Shown here in pieces: positions 1,347 to 32,906 of a DNA stretch of 64,000 nt. The stretch spans positions 1 through 64,000 of the forward strand of contig JAUWOR010000002.1 of assembly GCA_030612025.1 (NCBI GenBank), written 5' to 3'. The DNA comes from Dehalococcoidia bacterium. GTDB lineage: Bacteria > Chloroflexota > Dehalococcoidia > GIF9 > AB-539-J10. The position numbers and the translations under genes are program-made. The first letter of the stretch is position 1. The number at the start of each line of letters is the position of its first letter. Under the pieces are notes generated by a model that was given only the letters and a program-made list of their open reading frames with translations, was not told the origin of the DNA and made no database searches.

Positions 1347-2221
1347 GTGAGAGCATACATGTTATAGCCAAAGCAGTCTCCACAGCAATAAAAGAGAGGG
1401 ATGCCAAGGCAATTCAGGATTTAGCTAAAGCTCAAGCTGATAGTGGGGCTGATTATATAGACTTAAACGTTGGTTTCTTAAGAAAAGACACCGAGGAAAC
1501 CATGCAATGGGTAGTAAATACAGTTCAAGAGGTTACTGATTTGCCTCTTTCTCTGGATACTATGAACCCTGTGGCTATGAAGGCCGGCCTCAAGGTTTGC
1601 AAGAAAAGGACTTTGCTTAATTCCGCCTCGGGGAAGACAGATTCAAAGGAACAAATGCTTCCCTTAGCCAAGAAATATAACTGTGATGTAGTCATTTCAG
1701 TTTTTACTGATAAAGGTATGCCTTCAGAGGCCGAATCGAAGATAGAGAGCATTATGGACACAGTGGCCTATGCCAATGAGCTTGGAATCCCTAATGAGGA
1801 TATCTGGGTTGACCCCATAGTCCTCCCCGTGAGCACTGCCGGTGAAGGGCAGAAGCTTGCTGTCTCAAATATAGAATTTATGAAGATAATCGAGGATGTC
1901 TTACCAGGAATTAAATCAACGGTGGGACTTTCCAATGTATCTAACGGGGTACCGACAGAGCTAAGGCCAATCCTCAACCGCACTTACCTCATGATGCTGG
2001 CAAGGTATGGGCTTTACTCCGCCATTATTGACGTCCTGGATAAGGAGCTCATGGGCATATGTAAAGGTGAGAGGCCAAATATCGTCGACCTTATCTATAG
2101 GACCATGGATGGAGAGGAGATAGACTTCTCTTCTTTATCGCAAGAAGAAATCGACTATGTGAAGACAACCAAGGTTCTTACCGCGGAGACCCTATATTCT
2201 GATGCTTGGCTTGAAAGTTAA
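1334..2221 (+). CDS. acsE: Methyltetrahydrofolate:corrinoid/Fe-S protein methyltransferase (pterin-binding fold)
   Basis: IIGESI, ADYIDLN, PLSLDT, VDPIVLPV, GLSNVSNG motifs; position in CODH/ACS cluster. Confidence 0.88.
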   Translation: MVIIGESIHVIAKAVSTAIKERDAKAIQDLAKAQADSGADYIDLNVGFLRKDTEETMQWVVNTVQEVTDLPLSLDTMNPVAMKAGLKVCKKRTLLNSASGKTDSKEQMLPLAKKYNCDVVISVFTDKGMPSEAESKIESIMDTVAYANELGIPNEDIWVDPIVLPVSTAGEGQKLAVSNIEFMKIIEDVLPGIKSTVGLSNVSNGVPTELRPILNRTYLMMLARYGLYSAIIDVLDKELMGICKGERPNIVDLIYRTMDGEEIDFSSLSQEEIDYVKTTKVLTAETLYSDAWLES

Positions 2222-2230
2222 TGCTTATTT

Positions 2231-2318
2231 TGTCACCCTGAGCAATGGCGAAGGGGCTAGATTCTTTGCGGAGTCTGTCCTGAGCAGTATGAGATTCTTC
2301 GCTACGCTCAGAATGGCA
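2231..2318. repeat. Palindromic intergenic repeat (TGTCAYYCTGAGC...AGATTCTTCGCT...GCTCAGAATGRCA family)
   Basis: Inverted ends tgtcaccctgagc / gctcagaatggca; related copies at 42176, 47570 and 50221. Confidence 0.8.
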
Positions 2319-2361
2319 GGTGGACTTGCTAAACAATCTTTGAAACTTAAGGAGGCAAAGT

Positions 2362-3279
2362 ATGGAGTATAAAGCACCAATTGAGTCCTATACTGGAGTA
2401 GTTAGGGAAATAACAATCGGGAAAGGGGAAAAAGCTGTAAAGATAGGAGGGGAGAATATTCTCCCCTTCCATTTTTTTGATGAAGGTTCACTGCCTAATC
2501 CGCCGAGTTTCGCTTTAGAGGTTTGGGATATGGAGCCAACAGATTGGCCAGAGTGGTTGCTTGAGCCTTTTAAAGATGTTGCCTCTGATCCAGCAAAATG
2601 GGCCAGGAAATGCCAGGAACTCGGTGCTAATGCAATCTCCCTTTACCTTACAAGCACTGATCCTGCAGTGAAGGATAGCCCCGCTGGTGAGGCAGCAGCC
2701 CTGACAAAAAACGTAGCCGAGGCAATAACCATTCCTCTGATTGTCTATGGCTCTGGGGATGATAAGAAAGATGCCGAGGTTCTCCCCAAGGTTGCCGAGG
2801 TATGCGATGGAATGAACCTCCTCATAGGTCCAGTGCTTAAAGAAAACTATGAAGTGGTGGGAAAGGCAATTTTGGCTCATGGACATTTAGCTATTGCCCA
2901 AACCCCCCTGGATATCAACTTGCTGAAGGAGTTAAATGTAAAGCTCTGCCACTTTTTCCCTGCCGAGAGGATTGTGATCGACCCCTTATCCTCAGCATTA
3001 GGCTATGGTATGGAATATAGTTTTACTCTAATAGAAAGAGTGAAGCAGATTGGAATAATCGTTAAGGATAGTATGACACAGATGCCTATGATTGCTAATC
3101 TTGGAGGTGAATGTTGGAAAACGAAGCAAGCTAAGGAGAGCAAAGAACAAGGTTTGCTCTGGGAAGGGATAACAGCTCTTTCCCTTCTTTTAGCCGGAGC
3201 AAACATCCTTATTTTAAGGCACCCGGAGGCTCTAAGGTTAATAAAAGAAACGATTGGAGGCGAAATATGGCAGAAGTAA
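2362..3279 (+). CDS. cdhD: Corrinoid iron-sulfur protein small subunit (delta)
   Basis: YTGVVREITIG..IGGENILPF, IDPLSSALGYGMEYS, WKTKQA, ILRHP motifs. Confidence 0.92.
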   Translation: MEYKAPIESYTGVVREITIGKGEKAVKIGGENILPFHFFDEGSLPNPPSFALEVWDMEPTDWPEWLLEPFKDVASDPAKWARKCQELGANAISLYLTSTDPAVKDSPAGEAAALTKNVAEAITIPLIVYGSGDDKKDAEVLPKVAEVCDGMNLLIGPVLKENYEVVGKAILAHGHLAIAQTPLDINLLKELNVKLCHFFPAERIVIDPLSSALGYGMEYSFTLIERVKQIGIIVKDSMTQMPMIANLGGECWKTKQAKESKEQGLLWEGITALSLLLAGANILILRHPEALRLIKETIGGEIWQK

Positions 3280-24850: not shown

Positions 24851-26047
24851 ATGCCTATCTATTCTCATTCGCAGCTAAGTATGTATGAACAATGTCCCTT
24901 AAAGTACAAGCTTCGCTACCGGGACAGGATTAAACGGGACATTGAAGGCGTTGAGGGCTTCCTGGGCACGAGGGTTCATGATACTCTGAAGAAGTGTTAT
25001 GACAACCTCAGGTTTACCAGGATAAATAGCTTGAACGATTTGCGCGCCTACTATAATAAAATCTGGCAGGAGAACTGGCACGAATCAATCCTTATTATGA
25101 AGCAGGCCTTGACACGGGAAGACTACAGAGCCCTGGGTGAGAAGCTGATTAAAACTTACTATGAGCGCTATTCGCCCTTTGACTCGGATATGACCATAGG
25201 CACGGAGATGGGGCTCAATTTCTCCCTGGATGACGAGAACAAATACAGGATGACGGGCTACATAGACCGGCTGTCACGGGATAAAGATGATGTTTATCAA
25301 ATTCACGACTATAAGACATCAGCTCACCTGCCGAGCCAGGAAGACACAGACAATGACAGGCAGCTTGGCTTATACCATATTGGGATTCAGAAGAAGTGGC
25401 CAGATATTGAGAATATCAGGCTTATCTGGCACTACCTTGCTTTTGACAGAGAATTGGTTTCCTATCGTACCCCAGAAGCTATTTCAAATCTGATTCAAAA
25501 TACTAAGAGCTTAATTGACGAAATAGAGTCTGTTCGGGATTTCCCGCCATGTGAATCGCCCTTATGCGAATGGTGCGAGTATCCTGACCTCTGTCCGCTG
25601 AGAAAACATTTCATCAGGGTGGAAGCCCTACCTGTCAACGAGTATCTCAACGAGCCGGGAGTCGCGCTGGTTAACAAATATGTGGCTCTTAAGGATGAAG
25701 CGAAAAAGGTAGACCAGGAGACAGAGAAGGTAAAGGCGGCAATACTTGATTATGCTAGAAGAGAAGAGGTTGAAATCATAAAGGGCAGTGACTATAAAGC
25801 AAGGGTTAGATTTGATGAGAAACTAAGATTCCCGGGCAAGAATGATGAAGAGCGCCAGGAACTGGACGAGGTAATTAAGCAAGCAGGCAAATGGGCAGAG
25901 GTTTCCCAGCTTGATACCGCATCGCTCATCCGCGTCGTTGCGAACAATCTGTGGAACAAAGACTTAATTAATAAAGTCATGAAGTGCGGCAGAATTGAGG
26001 TGACCGATTCCATTCACATATCGAAATTAAAGGACAAGGAGAAGTAG
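24851..26047 (+). CDS. PD-(D/E)XK (RecB/Cas4-like) nuclease with probable Fe-S cysteines
   Basis: YSHSQL..YEQCP, GTRVH, GYIDRL, IHDYKT, QLGLY, CEWCEYPDLC. Confidence 0.88.
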   Translation: MPIYSHSQLSMYEQCPLKYKLRYRDRIKRDIEGVEGFLGTRVHDTLKKCYDNLRFTRINSLNDLRAYYNKIWQENWHESILIMKQALTREDYRALGEKLIKTYYERYSPFDSDMTIGTEMGLNFSLDDENKYRMTGYIDRLSRDKDDVYQIHDYKTSAHLPSQEDTDNDRQLGLYHIGIQKKWPDIENIRLIWHYLAFDRELVSYRTPEAISNLIQNTKSLIDEIESVRDFPPCESPLCEWCEYPDLCPLRKHFIRVEALPVNEYLNEPGVALVNKYVALKDEAKKVDQETEKVKAAILDYARREEVEIIKGSDYKARVRFDEKLRFPGKNDEERQELDEVIKQAGKWAEVSQLDTASLIRVVANNLWNKDLINKVMKCGRIEVTDSIHISKLKDKEK

Positions 26048-26130
26048 GGGATATAGGCTCAGGCAAGGAGCGGTGAAACCACGCAGGTTGACTGGCCCGA
26101 CAAGAGGTGTCCATCCACAGGCCTCTTCTT

Positions 26131-26596
26131 TGTCATTGCGAGCCAAAGGCGTGGCAATCTCACTTCGCAGCGGGGGTTTATCTCCGCCTGTACCTCACCA
26201 GATAAGGGGACGGGCGGACGAGGGCACCCTTTTGGTTGGGGACGAGCCCCAACCCCACAAGATTGCTTCGTCGCTTATGCTCCTCGCAATGACAGGAAGG
26301 AAGCGCTCCCCGCGATGATAGAAAGGAGGCATCCACCGCGATGACAGGAAAGGCGGCAATGATAAGAGGGAAAGCTATGTGTCATTGAGCATACGAATGA
26401 GTACACTCGCTTGCTGTGTAGGAGCTATCAGCGTAAAATCCTGCTTATAGAGGGGTAAAGAAATGGAGCAGGTGAAGTTAGAGGAACTTCCTAAGGAGAC
26501 CTTGATAGAATTGGCAAGAATGTATGCTCGAAACTGGCAAACTTTAGATGGGCTGTGGTTTCGAAACGTTGAAGCCCAATACGGGCTTGAAGCTGC
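26131..26596 (+). repeat. Direct repeat copy 1 (repeat cluster + promoter + first 45 codons of a DUF6125 gene)
   Basis: Aligns with 34067-34455 with scattered substitutions and indels; contains TTGCTG-17-TAAAAT (26411-26439). Confidence 0.9.
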
Positions 26597-27401
26597 CGAA
26601 GCTAAAATACAATCTTTCATTGAGATGCTGGGCAATGATGCCAGGCTGCTAACGGAAGGCGAAGAAATCAAGTCGCATGACCTCTTTACCCGCCTGACCT
26701 CAAAGAAAACCATCACCGGTGAAGACGAAACCGAACAGAGCGAGTTGAAGTACTTACAGGTTATCCGAAATATCCGCGATAACGAACCGCATTTATTTGA
26801 AAAGATTAAACGCCTGCCTAAAAAAGCTCGTACTGCCAGAACTAACGAAAACAAAGATAATACTCTGCTTACCTACTTCCGCAAGGGCAAGCTGCAAAAA
26901 TTCTATCTTTCACAAAATCAGTCAACTCGAGAATCAGATTTCTTCTCCACCGCCAGGCAACTCGAAGTGGATAAAGACACCCAACGCCAGTCTATCCCCC
27001 AGGATTATTACGACCTGTTAGACATGAACAAGAAAGCATTCCAATTAGCTACTACCGAAGAGGCGCCGGTGACAAAAATGAAAGGCGGCCGGGATACTGC
27101 TACCTTCGTGCTTAAATTCCTGAAGTCCAATCAAATTAAACACTTCCAGGGTTATACCGAGGGTGATGAGCTTTACATCAAACAGGTCATTAAACTCATA
27201 GAGGAGGGAGGTCTGCCTAAACAAACCACCAAAACGCTGCAAAAAGAATTGAGCGAAGAGCTAAACCCGATAAGAATACTGGGGATACTGAAAAAGAATA
27301 TTCCCTCAGAGTTTTTCAAAGAGCCCGTGGCTGAGGGTGCCGCTCAAACTTCGGGCCCCAGAGAGGTAATCCTTTCCGAATACCTCATAAGCACACAATA
27401 G
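26463..27401 (+). pseudogene. Chimeric ORF: DUF6125 N-terminus fused in frame to the C-terminal tail of a probable RM-associated helicase
   Basis: Residues 1-45 match 34322..34840; after LEAA the sequence (EAKIQSFIEMLGNDARLL...RLPKKARTAR...REVILSEYL) resembles, from memory, the tail of PLD/SNF2 helicases that precede Eco57I-like methyltransferases; no helicase motifs remain. Confidence 0.7.
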
Positions 27402-27406
27402 TAATA

Positions 27407-27895
27407 ATGAAGAAACATCAAAACAATTATGCTTTCATCGATGGACAGAATCTCAACCTATCCATACAGGAGTTGGGGTGGAAACTGGATTTCAGAAAAT
27501 TCAGAATCTATTTGAGTGAAAAATATAGTGTCGGCACAGCATACTATTTTATTGGCTTCGTTGAAGGGAACAATGACTTATATGTCTCGCTTCAATCAGC
27601 AGGATATATTCTGATTTTCAAGCCAACACTTAAATTACCAAATGAAAAAGTGAAAGGTACCGTCGATGCCGAACTGGTATTACAAGCAATGATTGATCTG
27701 AACAAATACCAACAAGCGATAATTGTAACCGGTGACGGCGACTTTGCGTGTCTGGCTGCATACCTGCGCAAGGCAGATAAACTGCAATGCGTATTAGTCC
27801 CAAACATAAATAAATATTCCGCTTTACTGAAAAAAGCGGCTCAAAAACGCATCGCCTTTATGAATGATTTAAAGAAAAAATTGGAGTATAAATGA
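27407..27895 (+). CDS. NYN (LabA/DUF88, PIN-like) domain ribonuclease
   Basis: AFIDGQNL, KGTVDAELV, IVTGDGDF, YSALL acidic-site motifs. Confidence 0.9.
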   Translation: MKKHQNNYAFIDGQNLNLSIQELGWKLDFRKFRIYLSEKYSVGTAYYFIGFVEGNNDLYVSLQSAGYILIFKPTLKLPNEKVKGTVDAELVLQAMIDLNKYQQAIIVTGDGDFACLAAYLRKADKLQCVLVPNINKYSALLKKAAQKRIAFMNDLKKKLEYK

Positions 27896-27946
27896 AAAGA
27901 ACCCTATAAGGACAGAACCTTATAGAGGTCTTTCCGTCGTGATTCT
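27896..27946 (-). ncRNA. Candidate small structured RNA convergent on the NYN gene
   Basis: Lies directly downstream of a minus-strand promoter; long stem ending in a U-run; 5' GACGGAA complementary to loop UUCUGUC; wobble pairs work only on the minus strand. Confidence 0.5.
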
Positions 27947-27952
27947 AGTATA

Positions 27953-27980
27953 AGTATAACAGATACATATATTTTGTCAA
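27953..27980 (-). promoter_or_regulatory. Near-consensus antisense sigma70 promoter
   Basis: Minus strand TTGACA (27980-75) -16 nt- TATACT (27958-53) with extended -10 TG. Confidence 0.7.
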
Positions 27981-27993
27981 ATAGGTTGTTTGC

Positions 27994-30900
27994 ATGGATA
28001 AACAAGCCGCCGCAAAAATCATCAGGGATACTTTTGAAAAACCCTTTGACAAGGGACGATTTATCACCTTTAGTAAAAACCTCGTCAATTATCTGGACGA
28101 CTCAAAGAACTTTACTTATCGAGGGAATATTATCCCCGATGCCTACGAGCCATATATCCATACCCTTGAGCGGATAGGCAAATATCAGGATGCCAATGAC
28201 AACAAGATAGACATCCTCATCGCCCAGCTCAAAAAGGAAACTTCCCTTGAGCATGCCCGCACCATGCAAAGAAATTTTATTGCCTGGTATCTCAACGGCA
28301 GCCGTGGCGGCGACCTTAAAGATGCTGCCCTTGTCGCTTTTGTCTCTCCCGATTCAGAAGACTGGCGCTTTTCCCTGGTAAAAATGGATTACCTCCTTGA
28401 AGAATCGCCCAGCGGAAAGACAAAAGTAAAAACAGAACTCACCCCTGCTCGCAGGTTTTCCTTCCTGGTCGGTGTGAATGAAAGCAGCCATACCGCACAG
28501 AGCCAATTAGTCGATATTCTGGCAGATGATAGAAATAATCCCACGCTCCCTACTTTGCAAAATGCCTTCAATATTGAGGTAGCCACCAAAGAATTCTTTA
28601 ATAGGTATCGCGACCTTCTCTACAAAGTTAATGAAGAACTTGATAAGCTAGTTGCCAGGGATAAGACTATCAGCCAGGAATTTGATGATAACGGCATAGA
28701 TACCATCAATTTCGCCAAGAAACTGCTCGGGCAGATTGTCTTCCTGTATTTCTTGCAAAAGAAAGGATGGCTTGGAGTCCCGGAAAATAAAAACTGGGGC
28801 CAAGGCGCTAGAAAATTCCTGCGGAATCTGTTTGAAAGGTGTAGACGAGAAAAGCGGAATTTCTTTAATGACTACCTGGAATTTTTATTTTATGATGCCC
28901 TAAACAGACAGGACAGAGGTGGCATTGACCCTAGTTACTATCACAGATTTGACTGCCGTATCCCATTTCTAAACGGAGGTTTGTTCAACAGCGATTACGA
29001 CTGGGTTAAAACGGACATCGTCATCCCAAATGATATTTTCTCCAACCGCAAGACTGCCAGTGATGAAGGTAGTGGCATTCTGGATATCTTTGACCTCTAC
29101 AATTTCACCGTTAAGGAAGACGAGCCGTTAGAAAAAGAAGTGGCAGTTGACCCAGAAATGCTGGGCAAGGTTTTTGAGAACCTTCTGGAGGTTAAAGCCC
29201 GTAAGTCCAAAGGTACCTATTATACCCCTCGTGAGATTGTTCATTATATGTGCCAGGAGAGCCTCATTAACTACCTGGATACCGTAATTAACACTGGCGA
29301 TGTTCCATTGGTACATACTCCTCCGCCTCAAGGAAAATTGCTCGGAAAGCCAGACCCCCAACAAGCAGCGTTGAAAACTCCTCAATACAGAGTTCTAGTC
29401 CCTCGGGAAGATATCGAAGAGTTCGTTCGTAAGGGTGAATCTACCATTGAGCATGATAGCCGAGTCGAGAGTCATGGTAAAGAAACCGAGCGCTATTCCT
29501 ACAAACTTCCCGAAAGCATCCGTCACAATGTGAAATTGGTTGACGAAGAACTAGCCAATATCCGTGTCTGCGACCCTGCAGTCGGCTCTGGGGCATTTCT
29601 AGTCGGCATGATGATGGAAGTTGTCCGCGCCAGAAATACGCTTACCACATACTTAGCAGATAAGGAAGGTAGAACCAACTACAACTTCAAGCGCCATGCT
29701 ATTCAAAATTGCCTTTACGGAGTGGACATAGACCCCGGCGCAGTAGAGATTGCCAAGCTCCGGCTCTGGCTTTCACTGGTAGTTGATGAAGAAGATATCA
29801 GGCAAATTCAGCCTTTGCCAAACCTGGACTACAAGATCGTCTGTGGCAACTCGCTTCTGGGTGTGGAGAAAAACTTATTCAATCTGGAGCTATTCAATAA
29901 CCTCGAGAATTTGAAATCACTCTACTTCAACGAAACCAACACCAAGAGGAAGCAGGAATACAGGAGCCAAATTGATGACTTAATCAGACAGATTACAAAC
30001 GACAACGAGAACTTCGATTTTGAAGTGTACTTTTCTGAAATCTTCCACGGAGATAATAAAGGCTTTGATGTGGTGATTGCCAATCCACCATATATTGAAG
30101 CACGGGGAATACAACAAAAGCATGTAGACACATATAGGAGGTTATTCAAGACTGCCGGTAATAGAGTTAACACTTTTGCTTTCTTTGTGGAAAAAGGAAT
30201 AGAACTTCTGAATAATGAGAGAATTCTTTCTTTCATCATCCATAGAAATTCAATACGTTCAAATGATTATAGGAAACTTAGGAAGTTCATACTTGATAAT
30301 ACCAAAATCAAGAACATCTTGAGTTTTAAAATCGGAGTCTTTGAGGAGGTGACTGGTGAGGTGGTAGTTTTGGTTCTACAGAAAACCAAGAATAATCAAG
30401 GAAATACAATTAAAGTGGATTTCCTGAATAATACTATTACTCAAGAATTTAACTATACACTTCTTGAGCAAGACGTGTTTAATAATCTTCCTGACTACAG
30501 ATTCAATATTTATCTGAATCGTTCACGGATACAAGTGTTAGACAATATGAATAAGCATCATAGGCTTGAAGAATTTGCTGACGTTAAGCAAGGTATTATC
30601 GTTGGTAATGAGAAGAAATATATCAAGACATATCAACAATCTTCTAAATACAAACCAATCCTTAGAGGTAAGAACGTATCTAAGTATAGGATAAATTTCC
30701 AAGGTGAATATTTATATTATGTCACTGGAACAAGAATATTAACGAGAGGTAAGACGAAGGACTTATTCGAAATTCCTGAAAAAATTCTAACGCAGCATGT
30801 ATCTTCAAAGATTGTAGCAGCATTGGATACTAACAACTATTATTATCTTCAAACAATTAATGGGATAACCAGCAAAAAGGAAACCATTACAAATAGGTAT

Positions 30901-31218
30901 TTGCTAGCCTTGTTAAACTCCACACTCATGAACTTTTATTATGAGTATACTTTTAATATAGGAGCAGAATTCACAACAGCAGTGGCAATCGAGAATCTTA
31001 ATAAATTACCTTTTAAGGAAATCTCTCGATCTGCACAACAACCATTCATTGACCTAGTTGACAAAATCCTCGCTATCACCAAAGCTGAAGACTATCTTGC
31101 CAATCCCACCAAGCAAGCCAAGGTCAAAGAATACGAACGCCAGATTGACCAGATGGTGTATCAGCTCTACGACCTCACGCCCGATGAAATTGTAGTGGTG
31201 GAGGGCTCCATAAAATAA
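27994..31218 (+). CDS. Eco57I/TaqI-like amino-methyltransferase with C-terminal target-recognition domain (type IIG-like)
   Basis: PFLNGGLF, DPEMLGKVFENLL, GTYYTPRE, DPAVGSGAF (motif I), YGVDID, DVVIANPPY (motif IV), TaqI_C-like region, IDQMVYQLYDLT tail. Confidence 0.93.
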   Translation: MDKQAAAKIIRDTFEKPFDKGRFITFSKNLVNYLDDSKNFTYRGNIIPDAYEPYIHTLERIGKYQDANDNKIDILIAQLKKETSLEHARTMQRNFIAWYLNGSRGGDLKDAALVAFVSPDSEDWRFSLVKMDYLLEESPSGKTKVKTELTPARRFSFLVGVNESSHTAQSQLVDILADDRNNPTLPTLQNAFNIEVATKEFFNRYRDLLYKVNEELDKLVARDKTISQEFDDNGIDTINFAKKLLGQIVFLYFLQKKGWLGVPENKNWGQGARKFLRNLFERCRREKRNFFNDYLEFLFYDALNRQDRGGIDPSYYHRFDCRIPFLNGGLFNSDYDWVKTDIVIPNDIFSNRKTASDEGSGILDIFDLYNFTVKEDEPLEKEVAVDPEMLGKVFENLLEVKARKSKGTYYTPREIVHYMCQESLINYLDTVINTGDVPLVHTPPPQGKLLGKPDPQQAALKTPQYRVLVPREDIEEFVRKGESTIEHDSRVESHGKETERYSYKLPESIRHNVKLVDEELANIRVCDPAVGSGAFLVGMMMEVVRARNTLTTYLADKEGRTNYNFKRHAIQNCLYGVDIDPGAVEIAKLRLWLSLVVDEEDIRQIQPLPNLDYKIVCGNSLLGVEKNLFNLELFNNLENLKSLYFNETNTKRKQEYRSQIDDLIRQITNDNENFDFEVYFSEIFHGDNKGFDVVIANPPYIEARGIQQKHVDTYRRLFKTAGNRVNTFAFFVEKGIELLNNERILSFIIHRNSIRSNDYRKLRKFILDNTKIKNILSFKIGVFEEVTGEVVVLVLQKTKNNQGNTIKVDFLNNTITQEFNYTLLEQDVFNNLPDYRFNIYLNRSRIQVLDNMNKHHRLEEFADVKQGIIVGNEKKYIKTYQQSSKYKPILRGKNVSKYRINFQGEYLYYVTGTRILTRGKTKDLFEIPEKILTQHVSSKIVAALDTNNYYYLQTINGITSKKETITNRYLLALLNSTLMNFYYEYTFNIGAEFTTAVAIENLNKLPFKEISRSAQQPFIDLVDKILAITKAEDYLANPTKQAKVKEYERQIDQMVYQLYDLTPDEIVVVEGSIK
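31133..31218 (+). repeat. Methyltransferase 3'-tail repeat, copy 1 (native gene end)
   Basis: Encodes ERQIDQMVYQLYDLTPDEIVVVEGSIK*. Confidence 0.9.
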
Positions 31219-31219
31219 C

Positions 31220-31681
31220 ATGGAAGCAAATACTTACAATAAGTACAAAATAAAAATATCTGATTTGAAATTCGTATGTATTGAAGCCAATGGAGAACAA
31301 GGAAAGGGATTCGTATACCCAGATATATCGGATAAATTGCCCAAATTATACGTCGTCAAACACCGTAAAGAAATTTACTATGTTGGAATTACTTCTCAAG
31401 ACATCAGAAAGCGCCTGAGGTATGGCTTCTCAACTCAGGGTAAGCATGGTTATCATGGATACAAATGGAAGAACAAGAATGCAGCCGATCTATTAATCTG
31501 GAGCTTTCCTGACAGCACTCAAGAACATGTGGAAGCGATAGAAGCAGAGCTGGTTTATTTTATCAGGGAAAAAACCGGTAAATGGCCAAAATACCAGATG
31601 GAAATTCACTTTCATGGAGCATCAGAAACCGAGAGACAAGTTGCCAAATCTATACTCAGCAGATGTTTAAACGGAGTTTAG
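31220..31681 (+). CDS. GIY-YIG-like nuclease
   Basis: KLYVVK...YYVGITSQDIRKRL and a later EAIEAELV; starts 1 nt after the methyltransferase stop. Confidence 0.7.
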   Translation: MEANTYNKYKIKISDLKFVCIEANGEQGKGFVYPDISDKLPKLYVVKHRKEIYYVGITSQDIRKRLRYGFSTQGKHGYHGYKWKNKNAADLLIWSFPDSTQEHVEAIEAELVYFIREKTGKWPKYQMEIHFHGASETERQVAKSILSRCLNGV

Positions 31682-31691
31682 GTTTAGAAAA

Positions 31692-32906
31692 ATGAGTAGG
31701 TCACCAGAACTCAGATTTGATATTAGTTTCTACAATGACGAACATCGAGCTATATTGATGAGACACAAGTATGCTGCCCGCATAAAGCAACTGGTGGATT
31801 CTGGCCTGAGCGTAAAAGAAAAAGAATTCCAGGTATATGCCATGTTCACCGAGCAAGATGGCCGTCCCAGGTTCCGTAATTACTCAGAACTGAAAAGAAA
31901 GGTGCCAGGCAGAATAAAGTTACTTAAGGATTACATTGACACCAAGAACGGCACCGTGCGCTCTTTAGTCCAACCCGGGAAAAACCAGGTTACCGAAAGG
32001 GTTGGTGTAGCCTCTGCATTATTAGTAATGAATAAAGTATTTGGTTTGCACCGCGCCGATTGGGAGCGTATTCCGGAAACCAGTAAACGCAAAACTATGG
32101 ATTTCCAGCTTGCTTCCGATGGCAATGACTTCATATTAGTTGAAGCCAAAGGAACTGCTTTTGAGACCGGTAATTTGCATCGGGATGCAGATTTGGAGCG
32201 ACATATTAAGGAAAAGAAAAAGGCTCATCTAGCGGAAAATGCCAACCTTACATCACTTTTTGGTGTCATCACAGGTATTCCTTGCGAATTAGAGAAAACT
32301 GCTCAATGTCTATTGTTAGACCCTCTTTTTGAGAATATCAGAATGGACGCGGCAAAATATCAGCTATTAGCTCGCTTATATTTCTATTCTCGGATACTGA
32401 GAGTAATTTCACGTGGTCAGTTGGTCAGGGCACTTCTTAATCGCATTGCTGTTTTAAAAAGAGCCAGCAACTATACTGAATTCGACAAGCTCCCATTAGT
32501 AGACATATACGGAGAGCCAATAGCCCCACCGCCTGAGAATACTTCATCAATATGGAACAAGACCGTCGTAAAAGATAAGATAATTGGGCAAATGTTCCCT
32601 GTGAGTAAAACTGATTTTGTCTATTATGCACTTGATATGGACATATATCGTCTAATGGTGGAGCAGAATTTTGAGGCTATCCGCAAGTTCAGCTCAACGC
32701 TAGACGAGCAGTTTATTGAGAATGTAACCTATGATAATGCGATAGTTGACGTTCGAGATTTGCAGGAATATGGCATTCCTTATGAATCATTTGAGAAATT
32801 TGACGAAGCAAACAAAGTCATTATCGCTCTTACTGGCAGTGTAAATTATAGTCTGTCAGGGCAAGTGATTGGTTTTTTTAGGTTGCCAGAGAGGACATTG
32901 CCATAA
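31692..32906 (+). CDS. Hypothetical protein with PD-(D/E)XK-like nuclease motif
   Basis: TE.VG...MDFQL...ILVEAKGT; no family recognised. Confidence 0.55.
   Translation: MSRSPELRFDISFYNDEHRAILMRHKYAARIKQLVDSGLSVKEKEFQVYAMFTEQDGRPRFRNYSELKRKVPGRIKLLKDYIDTKNGTVRSLVQPGKNQVTERVGVASALLVMNKVFGLHRADWERIPETSKRKTMDFQLASDGNDFILVEAKGTAFETGNLHRDADLERHIKEKKKAHLAENANLTSLFGVITGIPCELEKTAQCLLLDPLFENIRMDAAKYQLLARLYFYSRILRVISRGQLVRALLNRIAVLKRASNYTEFDKLPLVDIYGEPIAPPPENTSSIWNKTVVKDKIIGQMFPVSKTDFVYYALDMDIYRLMVEQNFEAIRKFSSTLDEQFIENVTYDNAIVDVRDLQEYGIPYESFEKFDEANKVIIALTGSVNYSLSGQVIGFFRLPERTLP

Follow-up and report, generated by a model that had tools for sequence, protein, structure and literature searches.

A conserved small RNA gene convergent with an NYN ribonuclease gene, a candidate RNA-antitoxin-like module found in Dehalococcoidia and across other phyla

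The 64,000-nt stretch of a Dehalococcoidia bacterium genome analysed here (contig JAUWOR010000002.1, positions 1 to 64,000; hereafter, the window) contains two convergent elements that are the subject of this study: a gene for a 162-amino-acid (aa) NYN-domain ribonuclease on the plus strand (27407..27895) and, at its 3′ end, a small-RNA element on the minus strand, which as a whole spans positions 27882-27980. The NYN protein, the protein half of the proposed module, matches the Pfam family NYN (PF01936) with an E-value of 4.8e-15 and 56.8 bits, above the cutoff of 24.2, and the PADLOC profile NYN PDLC01154 with an E-value of 7.4e-12. Five residues, D12, N15, D87, D110, and D112, are invariant among 14 aligned NYN relatives, and we take D12, D87, D110, and D112 to be the catalytic residues of the domain. 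The AlphaFold model of the protein has a pLDDT (predicted local distance difference test) of 90, and its best structural matches are VPA0982 (2qip, TMq 0.76) and the NYN domain of MARF1 (TMq 0.64-0.67). By hidden Markov model score, acidic residues, and fold, the protein is a member of the NYN/LabA-like proteins of PF01936 (VPA0982, PDB 2qip; MARF1, PDB 5yaa and 6fdl), and, judged from its sequence and model, it looks like an active nuclease.

A preliminary description of this locus had placed a near-consensus promoter on the minus strand directly past the NYN stop codon, followed by a long stem that ends in a U-run, and both are confirmed. The promoter (27953..27980, minus strand) has its -35 box at 27980..27975 and its -10 box at 27958..27953; the 16 nt between them end in TGT, which makes the -10 box an extended one, and 11 of the 12 consensus positions match. 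From the position of the -10 box, transcription is predicted to start at about 27946, giving rise to a single-stranded 5′ tail of 11 nt that contains the motif AUCAC (27936..27946, minus strand). The tail leads into a long imperfect hairpin with outer, middle, and apical helices (27894..27935, minus strand) and a 6-nt loop, UUCUGU, at 27917..27912, and the hairpin overlaps the NYN stop codon at 27893-27895. A U-rich, terminator-like 3′ tail within the last NYN codons (27882..27893, minus strand) is the probable end of an RNA of ~55 nt. The segment 27946..27890 folds with -21.3 kcal/mol (z -4.15) on the minus strand and with -17.1 kcal/mol (z -3.54) on the plus strand, and the minus-strand fold contains exactly two G-U wobbles that become A-C mismatches on the plus strand, as had been described.

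Considered alone, the window sequence is weak evidence for an RNA gene, because the number of promoter-like sites in the surrounding 2.7 kb (six, compared with 4.4 +/- 1.7 in shuffled sequences) is not above chance, and because 3′ hairpins are frequent after genes. The hairpin with its flanking A- and U-runs resembles an intrinsic terminator, so that the element could also be read as an ordinary, possibly bidirectional, NYN terminator with a chance promoter-like sequence beside it. The small-RNA promoter is the sole site in the 2.7-kb scan that scores 11/12. That the element goes beyond chance follows from its conservation across relatives of the NYN gene, to which we turned with a covariance model (R1) of the RNA; in the window, R1 matches positions 27882-27947 with 72.3 bits (E 3.9e-14).

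A scan of one genome per species yielded 57 loci whose NYN proteins share 37-99% identity, and R1 was built from 33 of them. By label, these loci belong to Dehalococcoidia, many Patescibacteria groups, Bacteroidetes, Gammaproteobacteria, Kiritimatiellia, Cloacimonadota, Nitrospirota, and one Pacearchaeota (DPANN-type) archaeon. At 49 of the 57 loci (E <= 1), R1 has a match on the strand opposite to the NYN gene, directly adjoining its 3′ end; without L028, where the sequence ends with the gene, and L057, a gene fragment, this makes 49 of 55 assessable loci. The remaining six carry variants of the promoter, the tail (AUCAC/AUUAC-type), the hairpin, and the U-run that are recognisable by eye. 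Among metagenome loci, none of which were used to build R1, the best 80 of at least 577 relatives gave 76 matches (E <= 0.001), or 76 of 79 without L077, where the sequence ends with the gene; three more have variants recognised by eye. At 15 further Patescibacteria loci, R1 matches at the expected place in 12, variants are seen by eye in two, and no RNA is found in one. Over the whole set, a single locus of ~149 assessable ones (L202) has the NYN gene without a recognisable RNA. The pair is also present, with an R1 match, on one viral contig, and the window's own 1.4-Mb genome contains exactly one R1 copy. The convergent overlap is kept at 75 of the 76 metagenome R1 loci, the exception being L131 (1501-2094), the only flipped locus: its NYN gene is intact, and the RNA gene, together with its promoter, points in the same direction. 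A conserved minus-strand RNA gene is tied to this NYN subfamily, and the earlier proposal that RNA and NYN gene make up one unit, complete in itself, holds in genomes, in metagenomes, and on the viral contig. Outside these sets, plasmids contain NYN genes at <=34% identity only and GenBank phages contain none, so no cultured carrier was found there.

Variations in copy number and gene content occur at a few of the loci. At L113 (1977-2145) and L036 (3468-3639), a second small-RNA copy, of another subtype, stands in tandem near the first, and L136 (1973-3077) has two identical small-RNA copies 1 kb apart. L008 contains a second, longer NYN-domain gene (221 aa; 1945-2610, minus strand) upstream of the RNA-linked NYN gene and on the opposite strand.

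The comparison of relatives, together with promoter conservation, had been suggested as the check on this element, and it bears out an RNA that is under selection on the minus strand. In alignment A4, which consists of the independent metagenome loci, standard pairs make up 90.9% of the cells of the three helices, compared with 77.9% in shuffles; two-sided changes are found in all 13 of the 13 pairs, and none of 500 shuffles reaches the observed value. On the minus strand, the genome set has 50 G-U pairs and only 14 A-C pairs, and the metagenome set has 66 and 13, respectively. U-tails (at least five U in eight positions) follow the hairpin on the RNA strand in 27/50 genome and 58/74 metagenome rows, compared with 1/50 and 0/74 rows on the NYN strand. 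Within 52 nt upstream of the RNA, 40 of the 48 genome loci and 65 of the 73 metagenome loci have the promoter motif, compared with 0.7% of random 52-nt windows of the same loci, and most of the exceptions still have near-consensus boxes. At two loci labelled Bacteroidetes, the promoter is apparently replaced by a TAnnTTTG-type box, which resembles the phylum's own promoter box. Conservation in the RNA is highest at unpaired nucleotides and at those closing the loop; across 74 distinct metagenome rows, it is 85-93% at the AUCAC positions of the tail and 93-99% in the loop (consensus UUYYGU) and its G-C closing pairs. In some subfamilies the top of the hairpin differs while the tail, the outer stem, and the U-run are retained. 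The AUCAC tail has a 5-6-nt likeness to the 3′ end of 16S ribosomal RNA, which may hint at mimicry. A plain terminator would not be expected to have a promoter at a fixed distance in most loci, a U-tail on the minus strand only, or loop and tail sequences conserved across phyla, and, as described below, the element and its promoter persist where the NYN gene is gone. The probability that we leave to it is negligible, and for practical purposes the comparative data refute it.

One structural proposal did not survive the same comparison. The 5′ segment GACGGAA is complementary to the hairpin loop, and this 7-nt match exists both in the window and in the consensus of its relatives, so that the observation itself stands; as a helix, it lacks comparative support. 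Across relatives, 73.0% and 75.3% of the cells in the two alignments are compatible with the 5′-loop pairing, which is the level of the shuffles (73.2% and 75.9%), and 328 of 500 and 441 of 500 shuffles, respectively, pair at least as well. Four of the seven 5′ positions (at positions 20-24 of the segment) covary instead with the 3′ strand of the outer stem, whose first pair is GC in 36, AU in 24, and GU in 13 rows. The match seems to be incidental, in that a purine-rich strand of the stem faces a loop rich in U. With no covariation for it in the two alignments, the partial pseudoknot or switch that had been envisaged is rejected.

The linkage can also be read from the side of the RNA, by searching whole genomes with R1 independently of the protein. 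This search found eight places in seven of 151 genomes sampled from the class of the window (Dehalococcoidia by label) and 23 places in 20 of 151 Patescibacteria genomes, the latter under strict filters by which weak matches are lost. Two weak places that resemble ordinary terminators (L065 and L169) were set aside as RNA genes. The 29 credible RNA genes comprise 19 that adjoin an intact, convergent NYN gene, four that adjoin a broken one (in three pieces in L060, truncated in L061 and L165, and split in L158), and six that have no NYN gene at all. These six orphans (L157, L160, L162, L173, L062, and L064) keep the promoter; they lie near position 1501 of their loci, except at 772 in L157 and at 191 in L062, among unrelated genes such as those for an amidase, an ABC transporter, and RelB-like and Fic/Doc proteins. 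The RNA can outlive the nuclease, and the nuclease is hardly ever kept without the RNA, which is the pattern expected of an antidote-poison pair.

From these observations, the explanation that we favour, tentatively and at somewhat less than an even chance, is that the NYN protein and the ~55-nt RNA form an RNA-antitoxin-like module in which the RNA neutralises the nuclease by binding the protein. The RNA would be the obligate partner that holds the NYN protein harmless, most likely through contacts of the protein with the conserved unpaired tail and loop. The strong, presumably constitutive, RNA promoter would maintain an excess of a short-lived RNA. When the supply of RNA drops, either by loss of the cassette or by the shut-off of transcription during phage infection, the freed NYN protein would cut cellular or phage RNA. 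The toxin-antitoxin or abortive-infection role that had been suggested is plausible in view of the patchy spread of the pair, its variable neighbours, a prophage-like context, and the orphan RNAs beside decayed NYN genes.

The arrangement of the two genes also brings to mind a cis-antisense RNA of the type I kind, which would act only through the NYN message: a duplex of ~55 bp would lead to cleavage, decay, or lower output of the message, and convergent transcription may interfere in addition. The convergent overlap at 49 genome loci, at 75 of 76 metagenome loci, and at every place of the RNA-first search that has an NYN gene speaks for such a mechanism, as does the overlap of the RNA 3′ end with the NYN stop codon. 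The near absence of U-tails on the plus strand (1/50 and 0/74 rows) implies that the NYN message should read through the hairpin and carry the full complement of the RNA. A strong RNA promoter, moreover, stands opposite a weak or absent NYN promoter; the full promoter motif lies upstream of the NYN gene itself in only two of 56 loci, and in some loci an extended -10 box is seen by eye immediately 5′ of its start codon. A strong RNA promoter facing a weak toxin promoter is the usual type I pattern. However, pairing in cis is automatically perfect and needs no conservation across phyla, so the 85-99% conservation of tail and loop is more than it would demand. At L131, where the RNA is co-directional with an intact NYN gene, no antisense to the NYN message is possible, and the orphan RNAs keep their promoters with no NYN message to pair with. 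The candidate toxin is a 162-aa soluble nuclease and not a small hydrophobic peptide. A second, par-like contact, of the RNA tail with the NYN start region, was examined at 74 loci and set aside, there being no excess complementarity (mean z -0.26, with six of the 74 loci below -2). We regard an action through the message alone, the main rival, as rather unlikely, and binding to the protein is favoured over it because tail and loop are conserved across phyla, L131 is flipped, and orphan RNAs keep their promoters. Pairing with read-through NYN message may nevertheless provide a second, antisense layer of control, and both routes could act together.

Several points weigh against the protein-binding antitoxin as we have drawn it. 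The convergent overlap is present in all but one locus, which an antisense mechanism needs and a purely protein-binding RNA does not, and the one flipped locus is a single metagenome contig. Since the apex of the hairpin varies between subfamilies, the loop is no universal protein contact. The existence, ends, and abundance of the transcript are predicted from sequence, and the toxicity of the NYN protein and its binding of the RNA are putative. A look for sequencing reads over 27000-28600 turned up three DNA-type entries of one study, with small shares, and no RNA entry. As to the counts, related sequences are not independent and inflate them, 11 loci were called by eye and not by the model, and 30 further strong Patescibacteria NYN places were left out of the RNA check; the alignments A2 and A4 were fitted to the structure of the model and are biased towards it. 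A benign role in RNA processing, with the RNA as an autoregulator, is also possible, because housekeeping genes surround many of the cassettes in very small genomes, and the subfamily is present in 39 of the 151 Patescibacteria genomes sampled.

In the window, the pair lies within a restriction-modification operon. Upstream, on the plus strand, is the C-terminal remnant of a PLD/SNF2-type restriction helicase (26463..27401), which over 268 residues (43-310) shares 72% identity with the C-terminal part (723-990) of the protein of L002, where the helicase is full-length (991 aa, PLDc_2/SNF2/Helicase_C). Downstream, also on the plus strand, a type IIG-like restriction-modification methyltransferase of 1074 aa (27994..31218; Pfam Eco57I, TaqI_C, and N6_Mtase; PADLOC REase_MTase_IIG, E 1.9e-262) starts 14 nt past the -35 box of the RNA promoter and is 56% identical to its counterpart downstream of the NYN gene in L002. 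The location between helicase remnant and methyltransferase had thus been given correctly; the idea of a one-off insertion there does not hold, as the order helicase-NYN-RNA-methyltransferase recurs in eight of 137 loci (L002, L090, L096, L099, L127, L130, L144, and the near-identical strain L001) and is conserved over 60-76% protein identity. By this comparison, the cassette is an old resident of the restriction operon in the window's lineage, and in the window the helicase has decayed since. Two bases past the end of the type IIG gene, a 153-aa open reading frame (ORF) with a GIY-YIG domain is followed by a 404-aa ORF without a family match (31220-32906 for both), which may be further parts of a defence island.

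The close spacing of the RNA promoter and the methyltransferase start, together with the recurrence of the gene order in the eight loci, could suggest that promoter and hairpin are a control element of the operon, limiting how much transcription of the helicase and NYN genes continues into the type IIG gene, with the RNA as a by-product. The other 129 of the 137 loci have no such operon and mostly housekeeping neighbours, yet keep the RNA gene, and the covariation of the stems and the conserved tail and loop indicate selection on the RNA and not on a promoter alone. This explanation is largely refuted, and we consider it highly improbable. Restriction genes flank the pair in a minority of loci only; elsewhere, the flanking genes are unrelated between loci and include those for DnaK, PheT, ValS, LepA, AlaS, ArgS, DnaE, TGT, hydrogenase subunits, and glycosyltransferases. 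The neighbours of the pair on the viral contig are a P63C-domain gene on one side and a gene for a CI/LexA-like repressor on the other, a prophage-like context. Of the 151 Patescibacteria genomes, 39 have matches to the NYN profile that reach at least 160 bits, at 45 places in all and with up to three intact copies per genome. A weaker NYN paralogue (41-80 bits), distinct from the RNA-linked subfamily, is present in most of the 151 genomes and is probably a core gene.

Direct repeats of local target DNA bracket the NYN-RNA unit in four of the 39 loci tested (L045:2893-3687, L055:2896-3667, L003:2899-3596, and L019:2939-3721). The repeats are exact over 18-59 nt and imperfect up to ~100 nt; the units, measured between the two repeat starts, are 676-765 bp long. 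In L045, the duplicated sequence is the 5′ end of a GTPase-like gene; in L055, it is the 3′ end of a transfer RNA (tRNA) gene with its terminator (the tRNA is confirmed by an Rfam match), and in L003 and L019, it is terminator-like intergenic sequence, which suggests that insertion of the cassette regenerates the host gene. No flanking direct repeat was found at the window's own unit. Because repeats of target DNA bracket the unit and its contexts are unrelated, the NYN-RNA pair appears to behave as a small, accessory mobile cassette of ~0.7 kb.

A cassette without any other gene, which nonetheless has copies of target DNA on both sides in four of 39 loci, raises the thought that the RNA is a positive partner of the nuclease (a cofactor, a specificity subunit, or the guide of an NYN ribonucleoprotein), possibly serving the spread of the cassette. 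The obligate linkage of the two genes and the conserved single-stranded 5′ tail beside a stable hairpin are in keeping with this. The tail, however, is identical across lineages and thus no variable guide, and the finding that orphan RNAs are common and an NYN gene without RNA is nearly absent fits an antidote better. NYN domains are known as RNases and not as DNA-cutting homing enzymes, and ordinary homologous recombination could yield the flanking repeats. A positive role of the RNA is therefore doubtful in our judgement. In its boldest form, which we consider very unlikely, the pair would be a minimal selfish ribonucleoprotein element, with the RNA as an obligatory subunit of the nuclease and the particle helping the ~0.7-kb cassette to spread in or near host genes with long target duplications; if that were true, ultra-small bacteria and archaea would harbour mobile elements of a new, RNA-dependent kind.

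The preferred reading, an RNA antitoxin that binds the nuclease, invites comparison with known toxin-antitoxin systems, and the preliminary description had called the module type III-like. Type III systems (ToxIN, CptIN, and TenpIN) pair an endoribonuclease with an adjacent small structured RNA and act in anti-phage defence (PMC8860590, PMC13682666, PMC5086642), and their antitoxins are encoded as tandem-repeat arrays upstream of the toxin on the same strand, the toxin-cut units of which assemble into cyclic complexes (PMC8860590). The NYN-RNA pair shares with them a nuclease and a neighbouring structured RNA, and the logic may be the same, in that excess RNA neutralises and loss of RNA frees the protein. 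It differs in that the RNA is single-copy, has its own promoter, and is downstream of and convergent with the nuclease gene; in that the nuclease has the NYN fold (Pfam NYN only; 2qip, MARF1) and not the ToxN/AbiQ-type fold; and in that no pseudoknot is supported for the RNA, the 5′-loop helix being the one examined. Tandem Repeats Finder detected no ToxI-like tandem repeats in 26000-28400; the only array in this interval (26279-26350; period 26, 2.8 copies, 78% matches) lies between a small ORF and the helicase remnant and is unrelated to the NYN module. Of the earlier designation, the dedicated minus-strand RNA gene stands, and the type III label does not, as there is no upstream repeat array and no ToxN-type toxin and the gene order differs. 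By analogy, the NYN-RNA pair would resemble type III systems in logic and not in membership.

In gene layout, the pair is closer to type I systems. Convergent or 3′-overlapping examples of these include par/Fst of pAD1 and txpA/RatA and bsrG/SR4 of Bacillus subtilis, and SymE/SymR and RalR/RalA are cases with nuclease toxins. The likeness comprises the convergent genes, the 3′ overlap, the shared hairpin, and the strong RNA promoter facing a weak toxin promoter, so that at the level of the genes the antisense feature is present. The differences are the 162-aa soluble NYN enzyme, the unpaired nucleotides conserved across phyla, the one flipped locus, and the lack of a second site at the NYN start. 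Type I toxins are usually small hydrophobic peptides (PMC6563280).

As a small single-gene unit with a conserved 3′ hairpin in many unrelated contexts, the pair also bears some likeness to a cassette of an integron or CALIN. In the NYN-linked element, the conservation lies in the hairpin loop and a one-sided flank, with no paired boxes at the stem base by eye, and a dedicated promoter and a U-tail on one strand only accompany the hairpin; no integrase or cassette array is present in the loci examined. An attC-like site was set aside by eye, against the attC consensus. A hammerhead-like core, suggested by a CGAAAC-like loop on the plus strand, was likewise discarded, since no matching second core box is seen by eye and no Rfam ribozyme matches.

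The search of Rfam, another check that had been proposed, returned no family for the RNA. In the window (release 15, E <= 10), no model reaches its gathering threshold, the best being BTnc005 with 23.3 bits where 174.8 are needed, and in 15 diverse related loci the only matches at gathering level are tRNAs and an FMN riboswitch elsewhere in the loci. Within the listings and abstract openings returned by a full-text literature search, we found no published partner RNA for any NYN protein and no publication that joins the term 'type III toxin-antitoxin' with 'NYN', and the RNA-motif literature there makes no mention of NYN.

If our reading is right, the element in the window represents a widespread, uncatalogued family of small RNAs with a fixed protein partner, distributed across Patescibacteria, genomes labelled Dehalococcoidia or Chloroflexota, Bacteroidetes, and further phyla, and present in one genome labelled as a DPANN-type archaeon and on one viral contig. 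The two-part module of ~650 bp comes from lineages in which the biology of toxin-antitoxin and defence systems has scarcely been tested, and its conserved tail and loop are clear targets for mutation. The long target duplications raise the question of how so small a cassette moves. The NYN protein would be the first NYN nuclease under the control of an RNA, and the combination of a type I layout with a type III-like structured RNA would widen the concept of the RNA antitoxin.

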